From Promethearchaeota archaeon (GTDB lineage Archaea; Asgardarchaeota; Lokiarchaeia; Sigyniarchaeales; SOKP01), in the NCBI GenBank assembly GCA_030606485.1, contig JAUWGH010000003.1, forward strand, positions 360,001 to 392,000: a DNA stretch of 32,000 nucleotides. Direction: 5' to 3'. Shown here piece by piece: positions 18,487 to 31,343 of this stretch (positions are counted from its first letter, which is position 1; every line of letters begins with the position of its first letter). The notes beneath the pieces were generated by a model that saw only the letters and a program-made list of their open reading frames with translations, was not told the origin of the DNA and did no database searches. Both the position numbers and the translations under genes were made by a program.

Positions 18487-20544
18487 TTGGTAAAAATCAA
18501 AAAACCGATGAATCTAAAATTAAATAGTTTCCAGAAAAAGGCAGGAATATTCTATACTCCAGAGTACATTACTGAATTCATGGTAAAAAACGCAATTTTT
18601 GAATATATATTAACATTCTTTGAAAAAAGATATCAGACTATTGATGAATTAATTTTATCAGACAATCTGGATGACTTAAAAAAATTAAACAACATTATTA
18701 TACATTTGAAAATCTTAGACCCAGCATGTGGAGCTGGCATATTTTTATTAAAATCAGGACAAATCTTATTGGAATTAACAAATAAAATTGCAAAAAGATT
18801 AAATCTTAGACAAATGATTTTCAAAAAACGAGTTGATATAATAGAAAAAAATCTTTACGGTGTTGATATATTTGAAGAATCTATTCAAGAATGCAAATCG
18901 CAATTGAAAAAATGGTTGATTTCAAACAATCAACTTAATTTAAATAATTATGGAAATAAAAATATAAATTTTAATCTAAAGGTTGGAAATAGTTTAATTG
19001 GCAGGTTAAACGAAGAAATAAATGGAGAAGATGTATTCAACAAAAATCTTTCAATAGAATGGAAGCCATTCCATTGGAGTAAAGAATTCCCTGAGATAAT
19101 TAAAAACGGAGGATTTGATATCATTTTAGAAAATCCACCCTATATTTTTACCCGTGGTGGAAATTTTTCTACTTTACAGAAAACCTACTTTAGAAATTTC
19201 ATTTCTAAATTAGGATTAATTCAATCACAAAAAGGAAAGCAATTCCAATCGAATAAATTAAATACATATTCTCTATTTATCCTAAGGTCTTTAGAATTAT
19301 TAAAAAAAGGTGCCAAATTAGCGGTATTAATTCCAAATAATTTTCTGCGCAACACAAATCTCGATATTTATAGAGATTACATCCTTAGAAATTATTGCAT
19401 CAATCAAATTGTTGATTTATCTAATAGTGTTTTTCGAAATGTAGTTGCATCTATTATCTGCTTATTTATTGATAAAAAAAAGCCAGATGGGGAATTTAAG
19501 ACGCAAATCATATCTAATATTGAGGATCTTAATGAAAACATTTATACAGAAAATAAAATAGCACAATCCAGCTTTCTGAAAAATAAAAGTTATGTAATTA
19601 ATATACATCTTGATGAAACATCACGTAAAATTTGTAAATATATTGTAAAAAATTCAATAAATTTAGGAGAAATCACTGAATATATTATTGAAGGAATCAT
19701 TTGCTCAAAGAAGAGAGATATCTATGAAACTCGGCTGAAGTCCATAGATATGCCCTTTTTAGAAGGAAAGAACATTGATAGTTATATTACTAAATGGTCT
19801 GGCAAATTTATTAGATATGATAGAGAAAATTTACATAGGGCAAGGTCTAATGAAGTATTTACTAGCAATAAATTAATAATACAAAGAATTAGTGGAGGAA
19901 CTAAGCCTTTAAAAGCAAATTATGACCCCGGGGTCTTTTATACATTTTCATCGATAAATAATATAATTATAAATGAAGAATATCGAAAGAAGATTCCTTT
20001 AAAACTTGTTTTATTAATTTTAAACTCCAATCTAATGAACTGGTATTATGCAATTAATTTCACAAACAAATCAGAACTTACAGTAAATATTTCAAAAACT
20101 TTTTTGGAAGAGATACCCGTTGTTAAACCGAAAAACAAATCTCTTTTTGAAAATATCGCCGATTATTTGATGTTTCTATTTCAGTATTATAATATTAAAA
20201 ATGAAAAGTTAATTTTCACTGATGATATAATCCAATTCTTTTACGTATTAAGCAATGGAATAATCTATGAATTATATCTAAAAGAAAAAATTAAATCAAA
20301 TTTAATAATCGATTTAGAAAACAAATTAACGCCAATTAGATTTGAAGATTGGATTCAAATGAAGTTTAATAATATTATTTTTAACAAAAAATTTCCAGAT
20401 TTTGAAAAAATTGAAAAGGAGAATCTTGAAAAAATAAAAAATGTATATCATAAATTGGTTAAAGATAACACAATTCAGATTAATTTAAAAAAGATTTATA
20501 AAAATAAATGGATAAAGTTTATTGAGAGAGGTGTTAGAAAGTGA
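18487..20544 (+). CDS. N6-adenine DNA methyltransferase (Eco57I/TaqI-like, gamma class) with TaqI-C-like target recognition domain
   Basis: GIFYTPEYIT, motif I ILDPACGAGIFL, NLYGVD, GNSL, motif IV FDIILENPPY; TRD-like region KLIIQRI...LLILNSNL. Start is TTG 18487 or ATG 18508. Confidence 0.92.
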   Translation: MVKIKKPMNLKLNSFQKKAGIFYTPEYITEFMVKNAIFEYILTFFEKRYQTIDELILSDNLDDLKKLNNIIIHLKILDPACGAGIFLLKSGQILLELTNKIAKRLNLRQMIFKKRVDIIEKNLYGVDIFEESIQECKSQLKKWLISNNQLNLNNYGNKNINFNLKVGNSLIGRLNEEINGEDVFNKNLSIEWKPFHWSKEFPEIIKNGGFDIILENPPYIFTRGGNFSTLQKTYFRNFISKLGLIQSQKGKQFQSNKLNTYSLFILRSLELLKKGAKLAVLIPNNFLRNTNLDIYRDYILRNYCINQIVDLSNSVFRNVVASIICLFIDKKKPDGEFKTQIISNIEDLNENIYTENKIAQSSFLKNKSYVINIHLDETSRKICKYIVKNSINLGEITEYIIEGIICSKKRDIYETRLKSIDMPFLEGKNIDSYITKWSGKFIRYDRENLHRARSNEVFTSNKLIIQRISGGTKPLKANYDPGVFYTFSSINNIIINEEYRKKIPLKLVLLILNSNLMNWYYAINFTNKSELTVNISKTFLEEIPVVKPKNKSLFENIADYLMFLFQYYNIKNEKLIFTDDIIQFFYVLSNGIIYELYLKEKIKSNLIIDLENKLTPIRFEDWIQMKFNNIIFNKKFPDFEKIEKENLEKIKNVYHKLVKDNTIQINLKKIYKNKWIKFIERGVRK

Positions 20545-20773: not shown

Positions 20774-22090
20774 TTGTGGGGAATTATCATAAAAAATTTA
20801 AATATAAATCTGAATAATAAACTGGAATATTTAATAATAAAAAACCCATTGGACTTGCAAATAGAAAGAAAAGATATATTTTATCGCGAATCTTATTCCG
20901 AAATTATTGATTATATAAAATTTTTATTGAGTTATGAGGCTGTATCATCAGAAACTAAAATAAAGAAGATCAAAGGTTCAATTTTAATTGATGCTCCATA
21001 TGGCTCTGATATATTAGGATATATTAAATTGATTGCAAAGACATTCACCTTAAAATTTGTAAAGTTAAATTTTCCCGAGATTAGAAAATCACCTAATGAT
21101 TTTATATTAAATTTTCCTAATATTTTTGATAATTTGGCTAAAATTTATAGAGAAGCTAAAAAAGTAGAGCAAGAAGTTAAAGAAAAAGATAAAACTATAG
21201 AAAGAGCTTTAAAATTTATATTTATTGTTGAAAATCAACAAGAATTATTTCAGAGAACTCAGAAAGATATTCATTTTGATCTATTCGAACACTTATATTA
21301 TGAGTTAAAAAATAAGATGGAAAATATTAATTTTATCGAGAATGGGATTATTTTCATAGGAATTAATCATCAAGAGAATACTTTATGCCAAGCAAGTTTT
21401 AAATTATTTGATTTTTATTTAAAAATTCCAACGATTACTGAAAATGAAAGAATAATTATTTTAGAAAAAATTAGTGAAGAGATATCTGCAAATCAGACTT
21501 TTAATGTGGGTAGAATTGCTTCCTTAACTGAAGGTTGGGAAGTGAGTGATATAAGGGAATTGATTAAAATCGCATACTTACGGAATGTGGCTAAATTAGA
21601 TGATTCTGTCAGCGATATTACAGAATTAACAGAAAAAATAATTGACAGAGGGGAATTTATTCCTTCATATTTGATTTCACTAAATTTTATTCAAAACAAA
21701 TTAGGGACATTTCAAACTTCTATAAATTCCTCAATACATCAATCGATAAATCAAAATAGAAAGTTTAATAGAGAAGTTTCAAAAGAAGAACATATTAAAA
21801 TTCCAGAACTTGAATCTCAATTAAGAACTGAAATAGAAAAGATTAGATCACAAAGAATATCAAATTTCATGGTACAACAATTATATGAGGATGCAGCCTC
21901 AGAAAATTATACAGAGCTTTTAGTTATATTAGATAAGATGAAAAAGAAAGAACCTCTTGAAGAATATGATCGAAAATTATTAGCAGAATATTCTTTTATT
22001 TTAAATGACCCTCCAAATATCGCCTTAATACTGTTAGAAAAGGCAAAAAAACGAATTGATAATATTAAAAAAGCATTTGGGAAGGAATAG
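20774..22090 (+). CDS. Degenerate AAA+ ATPase-fold protein (pseudo-ATPase) with C-terminal helical domain
   Basis: Colinear with classical AAA modules: KGSILIDAPYGSDI (Walker A position), FIFIVEN (Walker B position), IFIGINH (sensor 1), FDFYLKIP..TENER..IL, IASLTEGWEVSDIRELIK.A (lid). Start is uncertain. Confidence 0.7.
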   Translation: MWGIIIKNLNINLNNKLEYLIIKNPLDLQIERKDIFYRESYSEIIDYIKFLLSYEAVSSETKIKKIKGSILIDAPYGSDILGYIKLIAKTFTLKFVKLNFPEIRKSPNDFILNFPNIFDNLAKIYREAKKVEQEVKEKDKTIERALKFIFIVENQQELFQRTQKDIHFDLFEHLYYELKNKMENINFIENGIIFIGINHQENTLCQASFKLFDFYLKIPTITENERIIILEKISEEISANQTFNVGRIASLTEGWEVSDIRELIKIAYLRNVAKLDDSVSDITELTEKIIDRGEFIPSYLISLNFIQNKLGTFQTSINSSIHQSINQNRKFNREVSKEEHIKIPELESQLRTEIEKIRSQRISNFMVQQLYEDAASENYTELLVILDKMKKKEPLEEYDRKLLAEYSFILNDPPNIALILLEKAKKRIDNIKKAFGKE

Positions 22091-22093
22091 AAA

Positions 22094-25000
22094 ATTTCGA
22101 CAAAAACAATTAGGTCTAGATCATCATCGGACAAATTAAACCAAGAGGTTTACATTAAAGAGATTATATTAGAAAATTTTTTAGCTTTTTCTAGAGATAA
22201 AGCCGAATTTTCCAAAGGATTTACAATTGTAGTTGGTCCTAATTGGTCAGGTAAATCCACAATTTACCAAGGGATAAAGTTTGCTTTAGGTAGCAATGAA
22301 AGGGACGAAAGATATACAAAATGGTCCGATTTTATAAGAACCGGACAAAACCATGCTCTAATCGAACTTTATATTCAGACACCTGAGAATTTGATTGGAA
22401 TACGAAGGACTGTACTTAGAGGAAAAGCTCCTTTTTTTGAAATTAAGCAAAATAATGAAAAAGAATTCGAAAAAATTAATTCCCTTGAAATAAGAGAGCT
22501 TGTAAAATCATTAAATTATAATCCGGATAATCAATTTTCTTTTGTCAGTCAAGGCAAAATTGATGCGCTTAAAGATATGAAACCTGAAGAATTATGCATT
22601 TTCTTAGAGGAAGGAGTGGGCTTAAAAGGGTTAAGACATGAAATTTTAGAGCAAAAAACTCAAGTATTCAATTTACAAGAAAAATTAAAAGCATTAAAAA
22701 CAGAGCAAAATAGTTGGAATTTTGAATTAAAATTATTGGAACCTAAGTTAAAAAGATTAGAAGATAAGCGAATTTTGCTTAAAGACAAAAAAAGCCTAAT
22801 AGATGAGTTATTATGGGCAAATCGAGAAAAAATAGAAAAAGAGATTTATATTCTTGAAGAAAATATTAAGAAAATTGCTATTATAATTAATGATTTACAA
22901 AAGCAATTAGAAGATTTTACAACGCAAATAAATGAAATTACTGAAAAAATTGAAAAAATTGAAAAAAATTCAGAAAAACTTTCTGAGAATATAGGAAAAA
23001 TAAAGGGTAGAATTTCAGAATTAGAGAAAATTATTCAACAGTGGAAGATTAAACAACAAAGGATAAAGGTACGCTTAGAAGAATTAGAACAAAATAAAAA
23101 CAAATTAAAAGGTAAATTAGACAACCATAAGGCTAAAGGAAATAAGATCTCAGAAGAATTAAAACTCACACGCAAAAATATTAAAATACTAGATTCTGCA
23201 ATCTCTAATATTTTAAAAGAACAAAATGAATTATTGGACAAGGTATCTATTCACAAAGATTTTCTTGAGAGATTTAAGAAGACAAAAGCAGAATTAAGTA
23301 AAAAACAAGATGAGCTTATTCAGAATACCCAAAAAATAACAGAAATTAATGATGAAATTGATATAATTTTCGCTGAATTAAGAGATGTAAAGCATCATTT
23401 TGAGCAAAATAAATGGTTTCTTAAAAATAAGGATGAGAATTTACAAGAAAAGTTAATAAATCAGCGTAATGATTTAGATAATGAAATTCATGATTTAAAG
23501 GAACAACTAAGAGAAATAAGAAAGGATCAGGTTAAAAGAGTTAATGCTTATAAAAGATTAAATTATTCCATTAGAGAAAAAAGAGTATTCTTACCTCAAA
23601 ATGTCATAACTTTAAAAGAAGAGATTTACAATAGAAATCTAAATGCAAAAGGTCCAATAATTGAATTATTACAATATAATGATAAATTGGGGTTTGCAAT
23701 TGAATCAGTTTTAGGAAAAAAAGTGTTATTTAGTTTTATTGCAGGCGATTGGAACACATTTATTCTACTAAAAAAATTGAAAGATAGTTATAATGTTTAT
23801 TGCAATATATATATACCAAAGGAAGAAAATATTCGTCAATTTTCAAAATATGAGAAAATTGATGGAGTATTAGGTTATCTCGCAGAATTAATTAAAATTA
23901 AGGGCAATGATGAACATGTAAGGAAATTAATTTATTCTAAAGTGAAAAATTGTCTTGTAGTAGAAGATTTTACTACAGGAACACTTATGCATAAAAATTA
24001 CAAATTTAGAGGTAAATGTGTAACATTAAAAGGCGAGCAAATCATATCCTATGATTATGTGGTTGAAACACCATACTTAAAGAAATTAGAAGGATTATTA
24101 AGTCCTACTAAACAAATGGATCAATTATATCTGTTAGAAATGGAAATAAGTAAATTGAATGATGAAAGAAAGAATTTAGAATCCCTAAAAACTAAAATAG
24201 ATCAAAAATATCGAGAAGTTTCCAAGAAAATTGATGCTTTACCTACTCTTGAATTATTATTCCGGCAAGAACAAAAACTTTTAAGCAAAAAAGATAATCT
24301 CTTTGAAACAAGAAAAAATAAGAACGAATTGAATGATAATATTGAAATGCAAATCGATGATGTGGTAAAAGAAGTGGAAACTTTAAAAAAAGAACAAAAA
24401 CCAGAATTTTTTGAATGGCAGAAGAGTTTAGAAAATATTCCAGACGAATTTGATTTAAAAAACAATGAAAAGAAACATTGGTCAAAAATTAATGATGAAA
24501 AACAGAAATCCTTATCTGAAATTCAAGAAATTATAAATGAAGAAACAGCTGAATTTACAAAAATAAACATTAGTTATAAAACAACCAAAAAAGAGTTTCA
24601 AAGTAGAGATCAAAAGGCATTTGAAGTATTTCAGGAACTAACTGGACTTGAAAATCAAATTAAGGATTTAAAAATTCAGAAAGAAAAGTATGAGTTAGAT
24701 AAAAAGGCTCTTAAGGAAGAAGAAAATAAAATTAGACAAGAAAATCTTGAGTTTAATTTAAATTATGAAAGAAAACAAGACCAATTGAGTTCGCAGCAAA
24801 ATGATCTCCAATCCAAAATTTTAGATTTAGAAAAAGTAAATAAAGAGATTGGTCCAAAAATATTAAGTGAAGAAATAAAAATACGTCCAATTGAAGAAAT
24901 TGAAAAGAGTCTTCTCGAAGTGAATAAAGAATTAATGAAATACGCAGATATTGATGATACTTTAGAAGTAGAAAAAGAGAGAATTATTAAAATACTTAAA

Positions 25001-25549
25001 AAAATTGCTCAAAATCAAGCGCAAATTCAGAGAGACCTTATTGAAGCAGAAGAAACCGAAAAGAATTTAGAAAATACATATTACAAAAAGTTCAATAAAA
25101 TTATCAAAAAACTAGAAGATTTAATTAATAAAAAATTTGAAATATCTGAAATTAAAGCTCAGTGTTCAATTGATTTATCGGGGAAATTTGAAAATTTAGG
25201 CATAAAAATTAAAGCATCTTTATTAAAAGAACAACTACGAGATATAACCGCATTAAGTGGGGGGCAACGCTCTATTATTGCAATTTGTTTAATACTTTCT
25301 TTACAAGAATTTAAATCAAGTAGGATAATTGTATTAGACGAAGCTGAATTATACTTGGATGAAAATAATGCTGAAATCGCCTATAAATTGATAAAGGGCG
25401 CAATTCAGATGAATAAAACACAAATAATAATATTTGTGCCAAAAGCATCTAAATATATTTATTCAATGGCAGATAAACTCATTGGAGTTGCAAGAAATGG
25501 AGCAATAGGACCATCAACGATACTCCAACCTAAGATAATAAAGACTTAA
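22094..25549 (+). CDS. smc: SMC-family ATPase (full length, about 1150 aa), Smc5/6-like motifs; start codon non-canonical or unresolved
   Basis: The frame is open from 22091: VYIKEIILENF, Walker A GPNWSGKST (22235-22261), Q-loop FVSQGKID, long coiled coils, hinge GPIIELL...AIESVLG, signature LSGGQRS, Walker B IIVLDE. The ORF-track start at 22391 omits the N-terminal head. Confidence 0.92.
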   Translation: MSTKTIRSRSSSDKLNQEVYIKEIILENFLAFSRDKAEFSKGFTIVVGPNWSGKSTIYQGIKFALGSNERDERYTKWSDFIRTGQNHALIELYIQTPENLIGIRRTVLRGKAPFFEIKQNNEKEFEKINSLEIRELVKSLNYNPDNQFSFVSQGKIDALKDMKPEELCIFLEEGVGLKGLRHEILEQKTQVFNLQEKLKALKTEQNSWNFELKLLEPKLKRLEDKRILLKDKKSLIDELLWANREKIEKEIYILEENIKKIAIIINDLQKQLEDFTTQINEITEKIEKIEKNSEKLSENIGKIKGRISELEKIIQQWKIKQQRIKVRLEELEQNKNKLKGKLDNHKAKGNKISEELKLTRKNIKILDSAISNILKEQNELLDKVSIHKDFLERFKKTKAELSKKQDELIQNTQKITEINDEIDIIFAELRDVKHHFEQNKWFLKNKDENLQEKLINQRNDLDNEIHDLKEQLREIRKDQVKRVNAYKRLNYSIREKRVFLPQNVITLKEEIYNRNLNAKGPIIELLQYNDKLGFAIESVLGKKVLFSFIAGDWNTFILLKKLKDSYNVYCNIYIPKEENIRQFSKYEKIDGVLGYLAELIKIKGNDEHVRKLIYSKVKNCLVVEDFTTGTLMHKNYKFRGKCVTLKGEQIISYDYVVETPYLKKLEGLLSPTKQMDQLYLLEMEISKLNDERKNLESLKTKIDQKYREVSKKIDALPTLELLFRQEQKLLSKKDNLFETRKNKNELNDNIEMQIDDVVKEVETLKKEQKPEFFEWQKSLENIPDEFDLKNNEKKHWSKINDEKQKSLSEIQEIINEETAEFTKINISYKTTKKEFQSRDQKAFEVFQELTGLENQIKDLKIQKEKYELDKKALKEEENKIRQENLEFNLNYERKQDQLSSQQNDLQSKILDLEKVNKEIGPKILSEEIKIRPIEEIEKSLLEVNKELMKYADIDDTLEVEKERIIKILKKIAQNQAQIQRDLIEAEETEKNLENTYYKKFNKIIKKLEDLINKKFEISEIKAQCSIDLSGKFENLGIKIKASLLKEQLRDITALSGGQRSIIAICLILSLQEFKSSRIIVLDEAELYLDENNAEIAYKLIKGAIQMNKTQIIIFVPKASKYIYSMADKLIGVARNGAIGPSTILQPKIIKT

Positions 25550-25566
25550 AAGAAATTTGAATTATT

Positions 25567-26238
25567 ATGGAAAAAAATAACTCCTCTACCCCGTCTATTA
25601 TTGAAGAAATTCAAAAAATTTTTGAAACAGTTCGTAGTGGGTCTCTAGATGCTCTAAGTGTAGATTTAAATCCCATTTTTCAAAAATTTAAACGAGCTAT
25701 AAATGCACAAAATCTGAATGAATCATCTTCCGCATTTAGCAAGTTATGTGATATTATTGAAACAAAATTTAACGAATTACAGATGTATTTGGCCCTATTT
25801 GGTCAAGAAAAGAAGTTCTTAACATTTTTAGAATCAAATCCTTCTGATATTGAAGTATTCAGTCTTTTTAAAGGATGTTGGTATAAACCCTATAATTTAA
25901 ATGCATTATCTCTTGATTTTTTAGAGGAGTCTAAAAATTCCCTGGAAAGTAGAATAAGAGAAGGTTATATAATTGAAAATCTTGAAATCCCACTAAAAGA
26001 TGAGAATTTTATATTAGAAATACCTTCAAGTTCATTTCAAAAAACAATTGAAAACTATTTTAATAAAATATATAAAAAATTGCCATGTAATATGGACGAT
26101 CTCTTCGAAGAACTCGAGAGTCAGGAAGAGATATATGAAAAATTTATTATTATTTTACATTTACTTCAAAATGGAAAAATAATGTATCAAAAACAGACAA
26201 ATTTTATTTATATACCAAAAGGTGGAAAAGATGAATGA
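25567..26238 (+). CDS. Kleisin (ScpA/Nse4-like)
   Basis: Immediately downstream of smc. The C-terminal segment ..FIIILHLLQNGKI...Q...FIYI matches the kleisin C-terminal wHTH pattern; size is typical of ScpA. Confidence 0.72.
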   Translation: MEKNNSSTPSIIEEIQKIFETVRSGSLDALSVDLNPIFQKFKRAINAQNLNESSSAFSKLCDIIETKFNELQMYLALFGQEKKFLTFLESNPSDIEVFSLFKGCWYKPYNLNALSLDFLEESKNSLESRIREGYIIENLEIPLKDENFILEIPSSSFQKTIENYFNKIYKKLPCNMDDLFEELESQEEIYEKFIIILHLLQNGKIMYQKQTNFIYIPKGGKDE

Positions 26239-26746
26239 AATATCCTTATTGATGTATTTATTAAGTAAGAAAGACCAATTAGATGAGATGGGCTCAACTA
26301 AAGAAGAAGTCTTAGAAAAATTGCAAATTTCTGGGCGAAATAAAGGATTTATGTTTAAAAAACTAATTATTGAACTTTCTAAATATATTTCTCCCTTAGG
26401 ACTCGAAATTCAATATAATCCGTTAAATACCCATTGGTTCTTAACTTTTAAATCAAGTATGAATGATCTGATTTTAGCAAACCCATTTCAAGATAAACCA
26501 CGATTGGCTGCAACTTTATTTTGTGCAATAATTTTATGCTTAAAAAGTAATGGTATTGCAAAAATAGTTGAATTAAAGAAATTAAGAAATAAAAAAGAAA
26601 TCCGGGACGACCTAAAAGATTTAGAAAATCTAGGTTATATTAAAATTATTAAAAATTATAATGAAATTAATTTAACCCCACTTATTGGATACCAGCTAAA
26701 CCTCGAAAAATTATTTATGAAATTATCATTAAAATTAAATGTTTGA
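26231..26746 (+). CDS. KITE subunit (ScpB/Nse1/Nse3-like tandem wHTH)
   Basis: Overlaps the kleisin stop (ATGAATGA). The two wHTH-like halves (L..Y..PLGLEI......WFL; AATL...I.......EL..LR......L..LE.LGYI) follow the ScpB architecture. AGGTGG upstream favours ATG 26231. Confidence 0.7.
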   Translation: MNEISLLMYLLSKKDQLDEMGSTKEEVLEKLQISGRNKGFMFKKLIIELSKYISPLGLEIQYNPLNTHWFLTFKSSMNDLILANPFQDKPRLAATLFCAIILCLKSNGIAKIVELKKLRNKKEIRDDLKDLENLGYIKIIKNYNEINLTPLIGYQLNLEKLFMKLSLKLNV

Positions 26747-26847: not shown

Positions 26848-28278
26848 ATGCCTTCCTTAACATCTCAAAAAGAAGGTCGACCAACTAAATTTTTGGTTCT
26901 TTTTAAAAAGTTCTGGCCAAATTTCGTCGTATATAATTCATGGGCACTAACTATTTCATCCTTGTATATAAATATAATAATCGTTTCAAATATAATTTGG
27001 GCTGGAGAAGAGATTCATGTTGGAGAACTAGGAATTCTGTTTGGATTCGGAACATGGATGATGGGAATTTCAGGTTTGTTTTTTGGTTATTTAGCAGATA
27101 GGATTAATCGCATAAAACTTATGACATTAACTATGATAATGTTTGGAGTTGGTATGTTAATAAATGGATTTAGTCCAGAAGGGCAAGGATCCTTAACTTT
27201 TAACTTCTTTTTAGGATGCCTTTTATTCAGAAATTTTTTTTGTGGTGGGTTTTGGCCTATTATTCTCTCATATACAAACGATGCTGTAGAAGAATTTGAA
27301 CGTTCTCGGTTTTTTGGTGCTATAAATGCCACTTTTCAAGTTTTTCAGATAAGTGGGATGTTAATTTCCACCTTGTTATTTCAAAATCAATTTTGGCGTG
27401 AATTTATGTGGGGTATGGGATTGTTATATTTCATTGGAAGTATTATGATCTATCTAAAAGGTATTGAACCTAAGAGAGGAGGTACCCAAAATCAATTAAA
27501 AACAGTTTTATTCGAATCAAGGATCAAATATCAGTATAAATTAACAAAAAAAACATTTAGAACTACTATTTTAAAGCCTACTATTTGTATTTTATTTGTT
27601 GAGGGTATTTTTATTTCAATGTGTTTCTCATTGGTTGACTTTCTATTTATAACCTATTTACAATCACCACCTCATAACATTTCTCCCTTTATAACTACTG
27701 TATATCTGACTATATTTGGAATTTCTGGTGGCATTTTAGGATCTATCGGTTTTTCCAAGCTTTCTGATAGATTGGCAAATAAAAACTTCAAAAATCGTAT
27801 TTACTTAATTGTTTTTTCAATAGTAATAGTATTTTCGACATATATCTTTTTATTTTTTATTCCAATACAGAGTATGACTCCCGTTCAAGGAAATGATTTA
27901 GTATTTATAATAACTACTCCCGCATTTTGGTTACTTGGTATTGGCGCATTTATTTTTCGTTCCATTATAAGTATATATAGTATTAATCAACCACCACTTA
28001 TACAAAAAATTAATTTACCAGAAAGTCAAGGAATAATCAGTTCTTCTAGTCAATTTTTAGATTTTATAGGTCTCGGAACAGGACCAATAATAGCTGGTGT
28101 GATTTTGGAGTTATATAATAGAAATTATCAAATTACAGTGCTAATTTCAATGATTATTGGAATTGCAGGTGTACTCTTTTGGTTAATAGCAATAAAATGG
28201 ATTGATAAAGATATAGAAACAATTAAATCAATACTCAATCAACGAGCTGAAGAGATGGCTAGAATTAATGGGAAGTGA
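26848..28278 (+). CDS. Major facilitator superfamily transporter
   Basis: About 12 TM; motif A GYLADRINR and second-half SKLSDRLA; ERSRFFG loop. Confidence 0.92.
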   Translation: MPSLTSQKEGRPTKFLVLFKKFWPNFVVYNSWALTISSLYINIIIVSNIIWAGEEIHVGELGILFGFGTWMMGISGLFFGYLADRINRIKLMTLTMIMFGVGMLINGFSPEGQGSLTFNFFLGCLLFRNFFCGGFWPIILSYTNDAVEEFERSRFFGAINATFQVFQISGMLISTLLFQNQFWREFMWGMGLLYFIGSIMIYLKGIEPKRGGTQNQLKTVLFESRIKYQYKLTKKTFRTTILKPTICILFVEGIFISMCFSLVDFLFITYLQSPPHNISPFITTVYLTIFGISGGILGSIGFSKLSDRLANKNFKNRIYLIVFSIVIVFSTYIFLFFIPIQSMTPVQGNDLVFIITTPAFWLLGIGAFIFRSIISIYSINQPPLIQKINLPESQGIISSSSQFLDFIGLGTGPIIAGVILELYNRNYQITVLISMIIGIAGVLFWLIAIKWIDKDIETIKSILNQRAEEMARINGK

Positions 28279-28888
28279 TAATTTTTAATATCATGGCCGC
28301 CAAGTTGTCATTATAATCTTCCATACCTTCTAAATGTTCTCCTACAGTGTTGAAGAAATCCACAATTTCTATTTTTCTTTTTTCAAAGAAAGCCTGAATT
28401 TTTTCTCTTGCTTCTTGAAGCTTCTTATCTCTTTGAGCTTTACTCCCCTTCACCAAATCAACCTTATTAATACACACATAGATTTTTTTAGGAAAGAAAC
28501 GGACATCATTGAAAAATTCAAATTGTTTTTCAATAGGGCGATCCAAAGCAAATACAGCAATAATCTGTGAAGCGATCCGGCTAATTGTAATGATCCCCAT
28601 TCTAACAACTGCCCGGGCTTTATCTCCCCCAGGTGCGAATATCGTATGTGCTTTTTTTTCAGTTTCATCTCTAAAAATAACGCGATTGGGATGTATGGTT
28701 TTAGTTTCCTTTTTCTCTGTAGCTTCTCGAGGTAAAGTTGCCTCTCCAGAAAAGTCGGTCTTTACAATTACACATTTTCTTCCACCTTCCAGTGTTTCGA
28801 GTTTTTGTTTATTAATATAACTTACAAATAATCTTAAGAGGGTTGTTTTTCCTACAGAAATATCACCTAATAACCCTAGATTCACCAT
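28265..28888 (-). CDS. Atypical small P-loop GTPase
   Basis: G1 GDISVGKTT and G4 INKVD are clear. The G3 position reads FAPGG (no Asp) and the switch-I region is long. Confidence 0.78.
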   Translation of the reverse strand: MVNLGLLGDISVGKTTLLRLFVSYINKQKLETLEGGRKCVIVKTDFSGEATLPREATEKKETKTIHPNRVIFRDETEKKAHTIFAPGGDKARAVVRMGIITISRIASQIIAVFALDRPIEKQFEFFNDVRFFPKKIYVCINKVDLVKGSKAQRDKKLQEAREKIQAFFEKRKIEIVDFFNTVGEHLEGMEDYNDNLAAMILKIITSH

Positions 28889-28889
28889 C

Positions 28890-29705
28890 TTAATCTTCCT
28901 CCTCCTTTAATAATTTATTTAATAGAGTTTCATAATCAGGTATGAGATATTGTTCGAGTAGTGCACTATTATGGGCATTAATTAATCCTACAAAAACTTC
29001 CTTTAAATTCTTTGAATTTTTAAGATATTTTATTATCGTTTCAGATTCTACTCCAGCTCTTAGTGGTTTTGGTTCAGTATCAAATCCGAAATTTTCACTC
29101 GGAGGTAAAGAATTAAAAAATCCGAATGCAGTGTAGCCTTCATAAGCATAATAGCAAAAGAATCGAGATTTAATTGATTGAATAATCCTCGTCATATATA
29201 CACTTGGATATAACTCTCCAAGGGTCATACTTCCATCATAAGTTATGAGATAATAGGGGCTTATAGGAGATTTTCTTAAGCCAAACATTTCTTGAGGAGG
29301 TAAACAAACAAAAGGAATTTTTTCTTCGATAATGGCCCATAAATCCCATCGTTCTGCATCATTTAAAATTTGTTTAACTTCATCGAAAGCATAGTAAAAA
29401 TCTTGTTGAAAACTAAGTAGAGAACTTAGATAGACAGATAGAGATGCAAAAGTTGCTTCTAATACCGGCTGCTTTTTACTATCTTCGCTAGGTTTTATTG
29501 CACCACGCCAACTTCTTACTGCTGAATATGCAAATCCTTGAACATCAAAAAAATTCCCAGAAAGTATTATAAATTGTGGTATTTCCCCTTCTTCATCCGT
29601 GAGTAATTCTCTGGTTTTATTTAACAAAGCTACTTCAAGATTTATCTCTTTGTAGCCAGAATGCAATTGTGGCATTATCAGCCATTTATATTTCTTTTTT
29701 ACCAT
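28890..29705 (-). CDS. Hypothetical protein, probable inactive calcineurin-like metallophosphoesterase fold
   Basis: 271 aa open frame coupled to the GTPase. Degenerate motif series in the correct order: LIMPQLH, FIILSGNFFD, FVCLPPQE, LITYDG, LINAHNS. Confidence 0.55.
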   Translation of the reverse strand: MVKKKYKWLIMPQLHSGYKEINLEVALLNKTRELLTDEEGEIPQFIILSGNFFDVQGFAYSAVRSWRGAIKPSEDSKKQPVLEATFASLSVYLSSLLSFQQDFYYAFDEVKQILNDAERWDLWAIIEEKIPFVCLPPQEMFGLRKSPISPYYLITYDGSMTLGELYPSVYMTRIIQSIKSRFFCYYAYEGYTAFGFFNSLPPSENFGFDTEPKPLRAGVESETIIKYLKNSKNLKEVFVGLINAHNSALLEQYLIPDYETLLNKLLKEEED

Positions 29706-29809
29706 AGATCAAAGCCCCTTCATTAATAATACTATTAAAATTTTTGAACTCTTAAAAATAATACACAAGAATTGACTAATAAATTTTCTTTTTTTAATAT
29801 TTATTGAAT

Positions 29810-30376
29810 CTAAAATTTCGAATTTAAAACTTTCCTGATTCCAAATTCAATAAGGTCAAAATATTCTAATTTACTTACATTATTTATTTCAATTCTTTGA
29901 ATAGAATCGAGATTTTTGCATTTATCTATTTTCATTTCGAGGCGAGGTTCATTTTCTTTAATTTTAATTAGAATTTGTTGAATAAAATCATTAATAAAGA
30001 TTTCAGATTTTTCTCTCACGTCAATCTTCTCTGGTTCGACAAACAGAATTTCCACTTTTTTAAAATCAAAAAACTTTAAAATGCAGAGAAGGTCGTTATT
30101 TTTTGAGAATAATTTTCTTTTTATTAAAGTCCCTCTACCTTTATTTCCTATACTTTCTTTAAATAAATCTTCAGCACTCAATAAATTACTAGCAGTAGTA
30201 AAACTCTTTCCCGAGATTACTTTATTCAGTTGATTTATTACCAACTTGAGTTCATTGACTTCCTCAGTAAGTTTTTGGATTAGTTCTTTTTTATCAAGAT
30301 ATTGTTTATTAAGTGTTCTGTGAATATTTACTAATTTTTCAATTTCGTTTTTACCATCTTCTTCCTTGAAATTCAT
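29810..30376 (-). CDS. Hypothetical protein with N-terminal coiled coil
   Basis: 188 aa; heptad-like N-terminal ~55 aa followed by an alpha/beta-looking domain. Confidence 0.7.
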   Translation of the reverse strand: MNFKEEDGKNEIEKLVNIHRTLNKQYLDKKELIQKLTEEVNELKLVINQLNKVISGKSFTTASNLLSAEDLFKESIGNKGRGTLIKRKLFSKNNDLLCILKFFDFKKVEILFVEPEKIDVREKSEIFINDFIQQILIKIKENEPRLEMKIDKCKNLDSIQRIEINNVSKLEYFDLIEFGIRKVLNSKF

Positions 30377-30449
30377 ATATTTAATTTAAAGTGTTTCTAC
30401 TATATTAAATTATTATACTGATTAAATTAAGTGATAAAAGGTAATTAGA

Positions 30450-31343
30450 ATGAAGACTGCGATTATAACTCCAAATCCATCTGATATGGAGGTTAAAATT
30501 ATTACCAAGGAATTTCAAAAGAAAGGATTCGATGTTAAAACAATAATTCCCGGGGAAATAAATGTTTCTGTTGGTTTAAATGTTGAGAATGAACCAAATT
30601 CAGAAAAATTTCTATGCAATATTTTTGAAGATATAGAACCAAGAGGAGCCTTAGTAAGAGGTTTTGGGATGAATGTTACACAGAAAATATTTTTCCGATT
30701 AGATGTTTTAAGAATTCTAGAAAATATGGATATAAAATTAATAAATTCCCGAGAATCTTTAGAACTTGCCACAGATAAACTATTAACCTCCTTTTTATTT
30801 GAAAAGGCAAATATTCCAACGTTAAAAACAATAATATGTGAAAATCCCAATGATGCATTAGAAGCTTTTGAAATATTAGGAGAAGATATTGTTTTGAAAC
30901 CTATTTTTGGCTCGAAGGGTATTGGACTCACTAGAATAAATGATAGAGGTTTTGCAGAGAATGTCATTTATAAATTATCACGATTAAATGAGATTTTTTA
31001 TCTCCAAGAATATGTTCGACACAATAACCGAGATATTAGAATTCTAGTTTTAGGGGATGATGCAGTTGCAGGAATGTATCGTATTAGCGATAGTTGGAAA
31101 ACAAATATATATACTGGAGCAAAACCAAAATCAATAGAATTAAATAACGAATTGAAAGAATTAGCAGTTAAGGCAGCTCAAGCAACTAAAACTGAGATCG
31201 CAGGGATTGATATCTTAGAGACAGATAAAGGATTAAAAGTGATAGAGGTAAATTCGATACCAGGATTCACTGCACTTCAAAAAGTTACAGAAATAAATTT
31301 AGCTGAAAAAATAGTTGAATACTATCTAAATCAGATAAAATGA
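30450..31343 (+). CDS. RimK-family ATP-grasp alpha-L-glutamate ligase (MptN/CofF-like)
   Basis: DKL.T..L......P..T, VLKPIFGSKGIG, YLQEYV....RDIR..V.G, W.TN...GA, GIDIL......VIEVNS.PGF. Confidence 0.9.
   Translation: MKTAIITPNPSDMEVKIITKEFQKKGFDVKTIIPGEINVSVGLNVENEPNSEKFLCNIFEDIEPRGALVRGFGMNVTQKIFFRLDVLRILENMDIKLINSRESLELATDKLLTSFLFEKANIPTLKTIICENPNDALEAFEILGEDIVLKPIFGSKGIGLTRINDRGFAENVIYKLSRLNEIFYLQEYVRHNNRDIRILVLGDDAVAGMYRISDSWKTNIYTGAKPKSIELNNELKELAVKAAQATKTEIAGIDILETDKGLKVIEVNSIPGFTALQKVTEINLAEKIVEYYLNQIK

Follow-up and report, generated by a model that had tools for sequence, protein, structure and literature searches.

Complexes of the structural maintenance of chromosomes (SMC) type organise chromosomes in every domain of life, and the kleisins, KITEs, HAWKs and loaders that accompany them define how they are loaded and how they act. 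No other prokaryotes are as closely related to eukaryotes as the Asgard archaea, whose extra SMC complexes have been discussed as precursors to the SMC repertoire of eukaryotes. Besides the canonical SMC, extra SMC-kleisin-kite operons have been described in TACK and Asgard archaea (Yoshinaga & Inagaki, 2021; PMC8665677), and are reported to number as many as three sets in some Asgard archaea, with all three subunits encoded in each operon (van Hooff, Raas, Tromer & Eme; bioRxiv 10.1101/2024.01.07.573240). The published clades for the extra archaeal SMCs are SMC5/6-related, or form an Asgard-only third set (PMC8665677; 10.1101/2024.01.07.573240). Here we describe a cassette in a 32,000-nucleotide stretch of a Promethearchaeota genome (assembly GCA_030606485.1, contig JAUWGH010000003.1, positions 360,001 to 392,000; hereafter the window, whose numbering is used throughout unless another contig or locus is named). 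As in the published extra operons, SMC, kleisin-like and kite-like genes lie together in one operon, and this genome too has three sets. Unlike the published operons, which have three subunits each, the cassette adds a gene of AAA type, here called the pseudo-AAA gene. The term 'AAA' has no occurrence in the text of either paper, and no description of the pseudo-AAA protein was found in the literature searched, in keeping with an earlier note on this DNA, made by a model from the sequence, which did not recognise the protein as described.

The pseudo-AAA gene (20774..22090, plus strand) is the first of the cassette and encodes 438 amino acids. Its open reading frame has a TTG start right behind an in-frame TAA, and a TAG at its end. 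The earlier note had read the product as a classical AAA module with degenerate catalytic positions, and the elements it quoted, namely DAPYGSDI, FIFIVEN, ASFKLFDF and the lid sequence, followed by a polar linker and a helical C-terminus, are all present. It had proposed a structure search as a check, and the AAA fold has been borne out. An AlphaFold2 (AF2) model built from a 62-sequence family alignment has a mean predicted local distance difference test (pLDDT) score of 80.7, with disorder confined to residues 1-13 and 309-343. Foldseek searches of the PDB with this model return p97 D2 as well as FtsH, Vps4 and PAN, with a probability of 1.0 and E-values from 5e-9 to 7e-8. A family profile that includes less degenerate relatives matches Cdc48/VAT/p97 at 1e-49, with about 85 bits per ring on both rings, and the neighbours of the family in the ESM Atlas are AAA clusters. 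On its own, the window's protein has no Pfam match at E <= 0.01 and stays below the PF00004 gathering threshold, unlike its Thor-type relatives, to which PF00004 is assigned. The NCBIfam CdvC model matches it at 1.2e-5, with 24 bits against a cut-off of 650. A real AAA fold, with an alpha/beta part and a helical lid, is confirmed at the level of the predicted structure, and by profile comparison the closest active relatives are Cdc48/VAT-type classical AAA modules.

The motifs needed for ATP use are lost, as seen in the sequence, the family alignments and an alignment to the Cdc48 profile. The Walker A remnant DAPYGSDI (residues 73-80; 20990..21013, plus strand) is degenerate. The Cdc48 profile alignment places the family consensus GppGtdf opposite GPPGTGK, so that an Asp and a hydrophobic residue face the Gly-Lys of GPPGTGKT; the Asp, Asp79 in the window's protein, is almost invariant across the family. 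The Walker B remnant FIFIVEN (residues 148-154; 21215..21235, plus strand) is likewise degenerate and has no DE pair. In the remnant of the second region of homology, ASFKLFDF (residues 207-214; 21392..21415, plus strand), D213, the Asp of the classical RFD, is invariant and both arginines are lost; across the family, RRFGRFD of Cdc48 has shrunk to l..fD, with a conserved F-D. Between strands 2 and 3, where AAA unfoldases have pore loop 1, there is instead a long charged insert (residues 107-147; 21092..21214, plus strand), which forms a helix over residues 107-136 in the AF2 model, and neither the alignment nor the model shows an aromatic-hydrophobic-Gly motif after strand 2. The lid subdomain (21440..21673, plus strand), identified by phmmer, NCBIfam and the alignments, is well preserved, with an almost invariant TEGW..SD motif; the lid sequence quoted in the earlier note, IASLTEGWEVSDIRELIK, is residues 248-265. 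In phmmer searches of PDB sequences, the lid region matches archaeal Vps4/CdvC and VAT at E 0.002-0.015, the Vps4/CdvC lids at 0.002. With the Lys/Thr of Walker A, the Asp-Glu of Walker B, pore loop 1 and both arginine fingers lost, the protein is predicted to be incapable of binding or hydrolysing ATP in the usual way.

This degeneracy is, judging by the alignments and a motif scan, a trait of the whole family and not a local accident. The scan covered 178 proteins, made up of family members and a few generic AAA matches, and in only one of them, a metagenomic protein denoted P0149 (locus L067, 483-1607), does GK[ST] at the P-loop position occur together with the C-terminal domain described below. 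No family member, P0149 included, has a DE pair at Walker B in the alignments or the scan. The P-loop can be arranged as a series of decay, running from GPLGTGKS in P0149 through GPPGTDF in the Thorarchaeota-type clade and PGTDI in the Loki-type clade to PYGSDI in the window. P0149 has a complete Walker A and a Pfam AAA match, lacks the Walker B Glu and the arginine fingers, and its gene overlaps the start of a downstream SMC by 4 nt. P0149 would fit a halfway stage in the decay of an SMC-linked AAA protein that bound ATP.

The family appears to be restricted to Asgard archaea. About 90 homologues were found at both 90% and 50% clustering, all annotated as hypothetical; every named one carries an Asgard label (Promethearchaeota/Lokiarchaeota, Thor-, Hod- or Hermodarchaeota) and the rest are unlabelled. 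A scan of 1.84 billion representative proteins gave no family member outside Asgard. We also surveyed 200 Asgard genomes from 25 sampled families with profiles. The C-terminal-domain profile finds one copy per genome in six of the 25 families (41/45 genomes in family f1, 4/4 in f2, 41/48 in f9, 3/4 in f10, and the single genomes of f11 and f26), and is absent from the other 19. Family f9, the clade with a 357-aa protein, is identified as Thorarchaeota through its ESM Atlas neighbour cluster. The profile of the cassette's kleisin gives nearly the same pattern (43/45 in f1, 4/4 in f2, 41/48 in f9, 1/1 in f26); it misses f10 and f11, and f10 at least has a kleisin-like gene too divergent for it. 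The two f1 genomes without the kleisin are also without the pseudo-AAA gene, and most single mismatches between the two patterns fall at contig ends.

Gene order is also well kept. The earlier note had the gene abutting smc and proposed co-occurrence and synteny with this smc clade across Asgard genomes as a check. The next open reading frame is indeed an SMC with Walker A, SGG and the Walker B DE intact, and the linkage was found at every locus examined. On six public contigs with homologues (21-37% identity, or a match mainly in the C-terminal domain), an SMC gene lies directly downstream in all six, and the two small genes behind it are present on all five contigs of sufficient length. The order of pseudo-AAA, SMC, a gene of ~190-270 aa and a gene of ~150-200 aa was recovered automatically at 28 of 31 loci, and at a 29th by eye. 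These loci span Loki-type, Thor-type and other clades, and some of their pseudo-AAA proteins are only ~20% identical to that of the window. In every locus with enough sequence, the pseudo-AAA gene is directly upstream of an SMC of this divergent clade, with a kleisin-like and a ScpB/KITE-like gene behind it. At the pseudo-AAA/SMC junction, stop and start often overlap or are a few bases apart, and the gene would often be translationally coupled to SMC.

The SMC gene of the cassette (22094..25549, plus strand; ~1151 aa) was characterised by Pfam, NCBIfam, alignment and start-codon analysis. Its product is divergent, with Pfam matches to SMC_N at 7e-13 and to the hinge at 0.002, and a full-length match to TIGR02169 at 4.7e-55 (187 bits against a cut-off of 729). 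The ATPase motifs are intact: Walker A (GPNWSGKST), the Q-loop Gln, the signature SGG and the Walker B DE are invariant in 24 SMC orthologues. By raw similarity of the head, prokaryotic Smc is closest (1e-16), and Smc6 follows at 1e-7. The same genome (G000) has two other SMC operons (L027, on contig C10 at 788372-792542; L028, on contig C2 at 361963-368372). One set has a canonical SMC of 1194 aa with a strong hinge match and an adjacent ScpB-like gene, and the other an SMC of 1475 aa with two genes behind it, a ScpA-like one of 328 aa and a ScpB one of 331 aa. By sequence, the cassette is a third, extra and divergent SMC complex of this Lokiarchaeon-type genome. The earlier note has to be qualified in this respect: the candidate partner is a divergent paralog, the third SMC of the organism, and not its canonical smc.

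The two small genes behind SMC are less easily recognised. The first (25567..26238, plus strand; 223 aa) occupies a conserved position in all cassettes. Its last ~55 residues (162-214) give a weak match to the ScpA winged helix (NCBIfam, E 0.004), the C-terminal region matches two P. furiosus ScpA C-domain chains weakly (E 0.55-1.1), and there is no Pfam match. We regard it as kleisin-like by its position and by these weak, positionally consistent matches. The second gene (26222..26746, plus strand; 174 aa) overlaps the first by 17 nt. Pfam SMC_ScpB (PF04079) is matched by two of six orthologues, with a best E of 3.7e-6, and not by the window's own protein; the corresponding gene at locus L014 has a weak precomputed ScpB match, and a profile of this protein found nothing in the PDB. 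We treat it as putatively ScpB/KITE-like, by proxy of its orthologues.

At the junction between the pseudo-AAA and SMC genes (22088-22400), no ATG, GTG or TTG precedes the Walker A of the window's SMC. SMC and the pseudo-AAA gene share one frame, interrupted by a single TAG, and SMC has a probable ATT start at 22094, 3 nt past that TAG. All four members of the genus lack a canonical start at the conserved SMC N-terminus, and one of them has an ATG ~10 codons further in. A motif (K/N)ISTK(S/T), right behind the upstream stop, is kept in all four; its Ile codon, ATT in three and ATA in one, lies 3-6 nt past the stop. The same TAG and junction are present on independent metagenome contigs. Recoding of the TAG, or read-through giving a fusion protein, was considered and rejected: aragorn finds no tRNA with a CTA anticodon in the genome, and in a relative with 56% identity the two genes are in different frames, so the arrangement is not conserved. 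Because of this difference in frame, a start at ATT or ATA by termination-reinitiation seems likelier than read-through.

Behind the lid, a disordered polar linker (21674..21802, plus strand), variable in length and sequence and with pLDDT 33-56, leads to a family-specific C-terminal helical domain (residues 344-438, ~95 aa; 21803..22087, plus strand). By alignment, model and substitution rates, this domain is the most conserved part of the protein, and in the most distant relatives it is often the only part found by a single-sequence search. Folded in isolation from 29 sequences, it gives a confident helical bundle (pLDDT 90.4). A profile search of the PDB returned at best a short stretch of the Fft3 helicase (E 0.068), Pfam on 29 members gave scattered chance matches and no MIT domain, and an ESM Atlas feature search gave no usable match. 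The best Foldseek hit of the model has E 1.0, and the best Z in an exhaustive structural scan (VIA-align wide) is 5.0, far below chance level for helical bundles. An MIT-like domain, one candidate, is unsupported by the Pfam, profile and fold searches. The family is acidic (isoelectric point ~5) and the C-terminal domain is near neutral, which suggests that binding of protein fits better than binding of DNA. A ParB-like DNA-binding loader, acting through a basic terminal helix, was dropped for the same reason.

Against two congeners, the ratio of non-synonymous to synonymous substitution rates (dN/dS) of the pseudo-AAA gene is 0.21-0.25 overall, with 0.25 in the AAA part, 0.46-0.59 in the linker and 0.05-0.11 in the C-terminal domain. 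By these ratios, the gene is under purifying selection and still a working gene. In one metatranscriptome library (run X19), contigs with ~97-99% identity to the window, from a 97%-identical strain, cover 21207-21844 in the pseudo-AAA gene and 22356-22671 in SMC. They are partial on both genes and do not span the junction, so co-transcription is not supported by them. DNA matches to the locus come from cold-seep, marine-sediment and hydrothermal metagenomes of about 10 studies.

Given the linkage, the co-occurrence and the purifying selection, we lean towards a non-catalytic role of the pseudo-AAA protein in this SMC complex, as an accessory subunit or an adaptor. It would descend from a single classical AAA module of the Cdc48/VAT type, catalytically dead but with the alpha/beta and lid scaffold kept, and would share an operon with a third SMC-kleisin-KITE complex that is restricted to Asgard archaea. 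The conserved C-terminal domain, on its flexible linker, may serve as the anchor to the SMC complex, and the rigid AAA shell may act as a protein-protein platform regulating SMC loading, head engagement or turnover. The earlier note had proposed a fourth, non-catalytic subunit, loader or adaptor; the non-catalytic character, by sequence, and the linkage have stood, and the physical role is still a matter of inference. Several points weigh against the accessory role. Operon linkage by itself may reflect co-regulation, and the C-terminal domain is unlike any known SMC-binding module in sequence and fold searches. The identities of the kleisin and KITE rest on weak matches for the window's own two small proteins, and no fused pseudo-AAA/SMC protein occurs among proteins of 768-2190 aa, which is weak evidence. 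A complex prediction, in which the SMC head and neck (20-255, 925-1152), the kleisin-like protein (1-105) and the pseudo-AAA protein (14-438) each had their own alignment, gave a score of 0.00; its controls were not run, and it counts neither for nor against association.

A bolder form of this proposal, which we put forward tentatively, is that Loki- and Thor-type lineages have a four-subunit SMC holocomplex, in which a domesticated, ATP-blind Cdc48-type module is a stable regulatory subunit gating DNA loading or head engagement. Such a module could represent a class of SMC cofactor distinct from kleisins, KITEs and HAWKs and lacking a counterpart in both bacteria and eukaryotes, and might have evolved from an originally ATP-binding AAA partner already wired to the SMC gene.

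Instead of being a lasting subunit, the pseudo-AAA protein could be a transient assembly factor or chaperone, its dead AAA shell binding nascent SMC or kleisin and then leaving. SMC proteins have long coiled coils and a split head, and the pseudo-AAA gene is always the first of the cassette and translationally coupled to SMC. Descent from an unfoldase-type AAA protein also fits, and the conserved terminal domain on its flexible linker is reminiscent of a tethered module for client binding. However, the pore loops and ATPase motifs that AAA chaperones need are absent, and the data do not distinguish transient from stable binding. We consider this role unlikely.

The pseudo-AAA protein might be an adaptor to an active ATPase encoded elsewhere (Cdc48/VAT or MoxR-type), by joining a mixed ring or by docking, so that SMC rings are extracted from DNA or dismantled. 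Its closest active relatives are Cdc48/VAT, and there are known rings in which inactive AAA subunits join active ones; an example is FtsHi in the motor of Ycf2 (8xku), which is among the fold matches. However, the arginine fingers, which make the nucleotide contacts between subunits, have been lost, and there is no MoxR, VWA or other AAA gene near the cassette in the window. An adaptor of this kind is improbable.

As it has no known SMC-binding domain and its binding is putative, the pseudo-AAA protein could also be just a neighbour under shared regulation, tied to the SMC complex neither physically nor functionally. We find this hard to reconcile with synteny that holds across clades at only ~20% pseudo-AAA identity, with the frequent start/stop overlaps, and with phyletic patterns that match down to joint absence, and we consider it very improbable.

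The neighbourhood of the cassette is of a housekeeping kind, with threonyl-tRNA synthetase, dehydrogenases and a downstream block common to other Lokiarchaeia. This block (28265-31343) consists of a GTPase-like gene and two genes without a family match, all on the minus strand, and a RimK-type ATP-grasp gene. It also lies downstream of the cassette at two further loci (L001 and L002), one in a complete Promethearchaeota genome and one labelled Thorarchaeota; in the window, the two are separated by an inserted gene for a major facilitator superfamily transporter (26848-28278). The cassette is directly preceded by a gene (18487-20544) for an Eco57I/TaqI_C-type N6-adenine methylase of 685 aa, which resembles type IIG restriction-modification enzymes. 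It is probably a local insertion, because none of the other loci examined has it there. The presence of this methylase, together with weak matches of the SMC to the PADLOC models mad3, LmuB and JetC, might suggest a mobile anti-plasmid or anti-phage SMC system (Wadjet/Lamassu-like) with the pseudo-AAA protein as sensor or effector partner, but this is the most far-fetched of the explanations considered, since the SMC matches only generic SMC-head models and PADLOC recognises none of the other three proteins. A nuclease or effector gene is lacking, the methylase does not recur at other loci, and the cassette is single-copy, occurs in nearly all genomes of its families, and lies among housekeeping genes in a conserved neighbourhood.

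Thorarchaeota-type cassettes have a fifth conserved gene of ~120 aa behind the KITE gene (L039 7911-8267; L041 4705-5067; L042 4599-4970; L043 7334-7720). In its product, a CPxCG zinc ribbon stands at the N-terminus and a motif that ends in GQxWGY at the C-terminus, and this zinc-ribbon/winged-helix-turn-helix (wHTH) gene has no clear orthologue in the window's genome.

Compared with known AAA proteins, the pseudo-AAA protein has the two-subdomain AAA fold in common with Cdc48/p97/VAT, FtsH, PAN and Vps4/CdvC, and keeps a TEG(F/W)SGAD-like lid motif and the Asp of RFD. It differs from classical AAA proteins in being one module without an N or MIT domain and with an added C-terminal helical domain. 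Vps4/CdvC have an N-terminal MIT domain and one active AAA module, whereas the pseudo-AAA protein has no MIT match and only ~60 residues before the AAA core; Cdc48/VAT have an N domain and tandem D1-D2 modules, and here there is one AAA module. Non-hydrolysing AAA-type folds do serve as structural or regulatory subunits elsewhere, as in LAP1/LULL1 with Torsin, the clamp-loader delta and delta-prime subunits, and FtsHi. All of these partner with active AAA+ subunits in a ring, whereas the conserved candidate partner of the pseudo-AAA protein is an SMC ATPase of ABC type, and the window has no active AAA gene linked to it.

The SMC itself has the same head, hinge, Walker A and B and signature as that of Smc-ScpA-ScpB, and is followed likewise by small kleisin-like and ScpB-like genes. 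The cassette departs from Smc-ScpA-ScpB in that its SMC falls far below the curated cut-offs (187 against 729 bits), its kleisin and KITE are barely recognisable, and it has a fourth conserved gene. Nse5/Nse6, MatP, ParB, JetD/MksG and the C-terminal Rad50-binding helices of Mre11 are examples of accessory or loader proteins that are encoded with, or act on, SMC-type complexes. None of them has a sequence or fold relationship with the pseudo-AAA protein, which resembles Mre11 in having a conserved helical C-terminal module on a flexible linker. Unlike Wadjet and Lamassu, the cassette has no JetD/LmuA-type nuclease or effector partner, and no matching kleisin or KITE models in PADLOC. The cassette is an SMC-kleisin-KITE operon with an added pseudo-AAA component that is apparently undescribed. 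If the accessory role proposed here is correct, a conserved fourth gene product has been omitted from three-subunit descriptions, which would change how these complexes are reconstituted and interpreted, and the pseudo-AAA protein would be a further case of a dead AAA module, in this instance recruited to an ABC-type motor.

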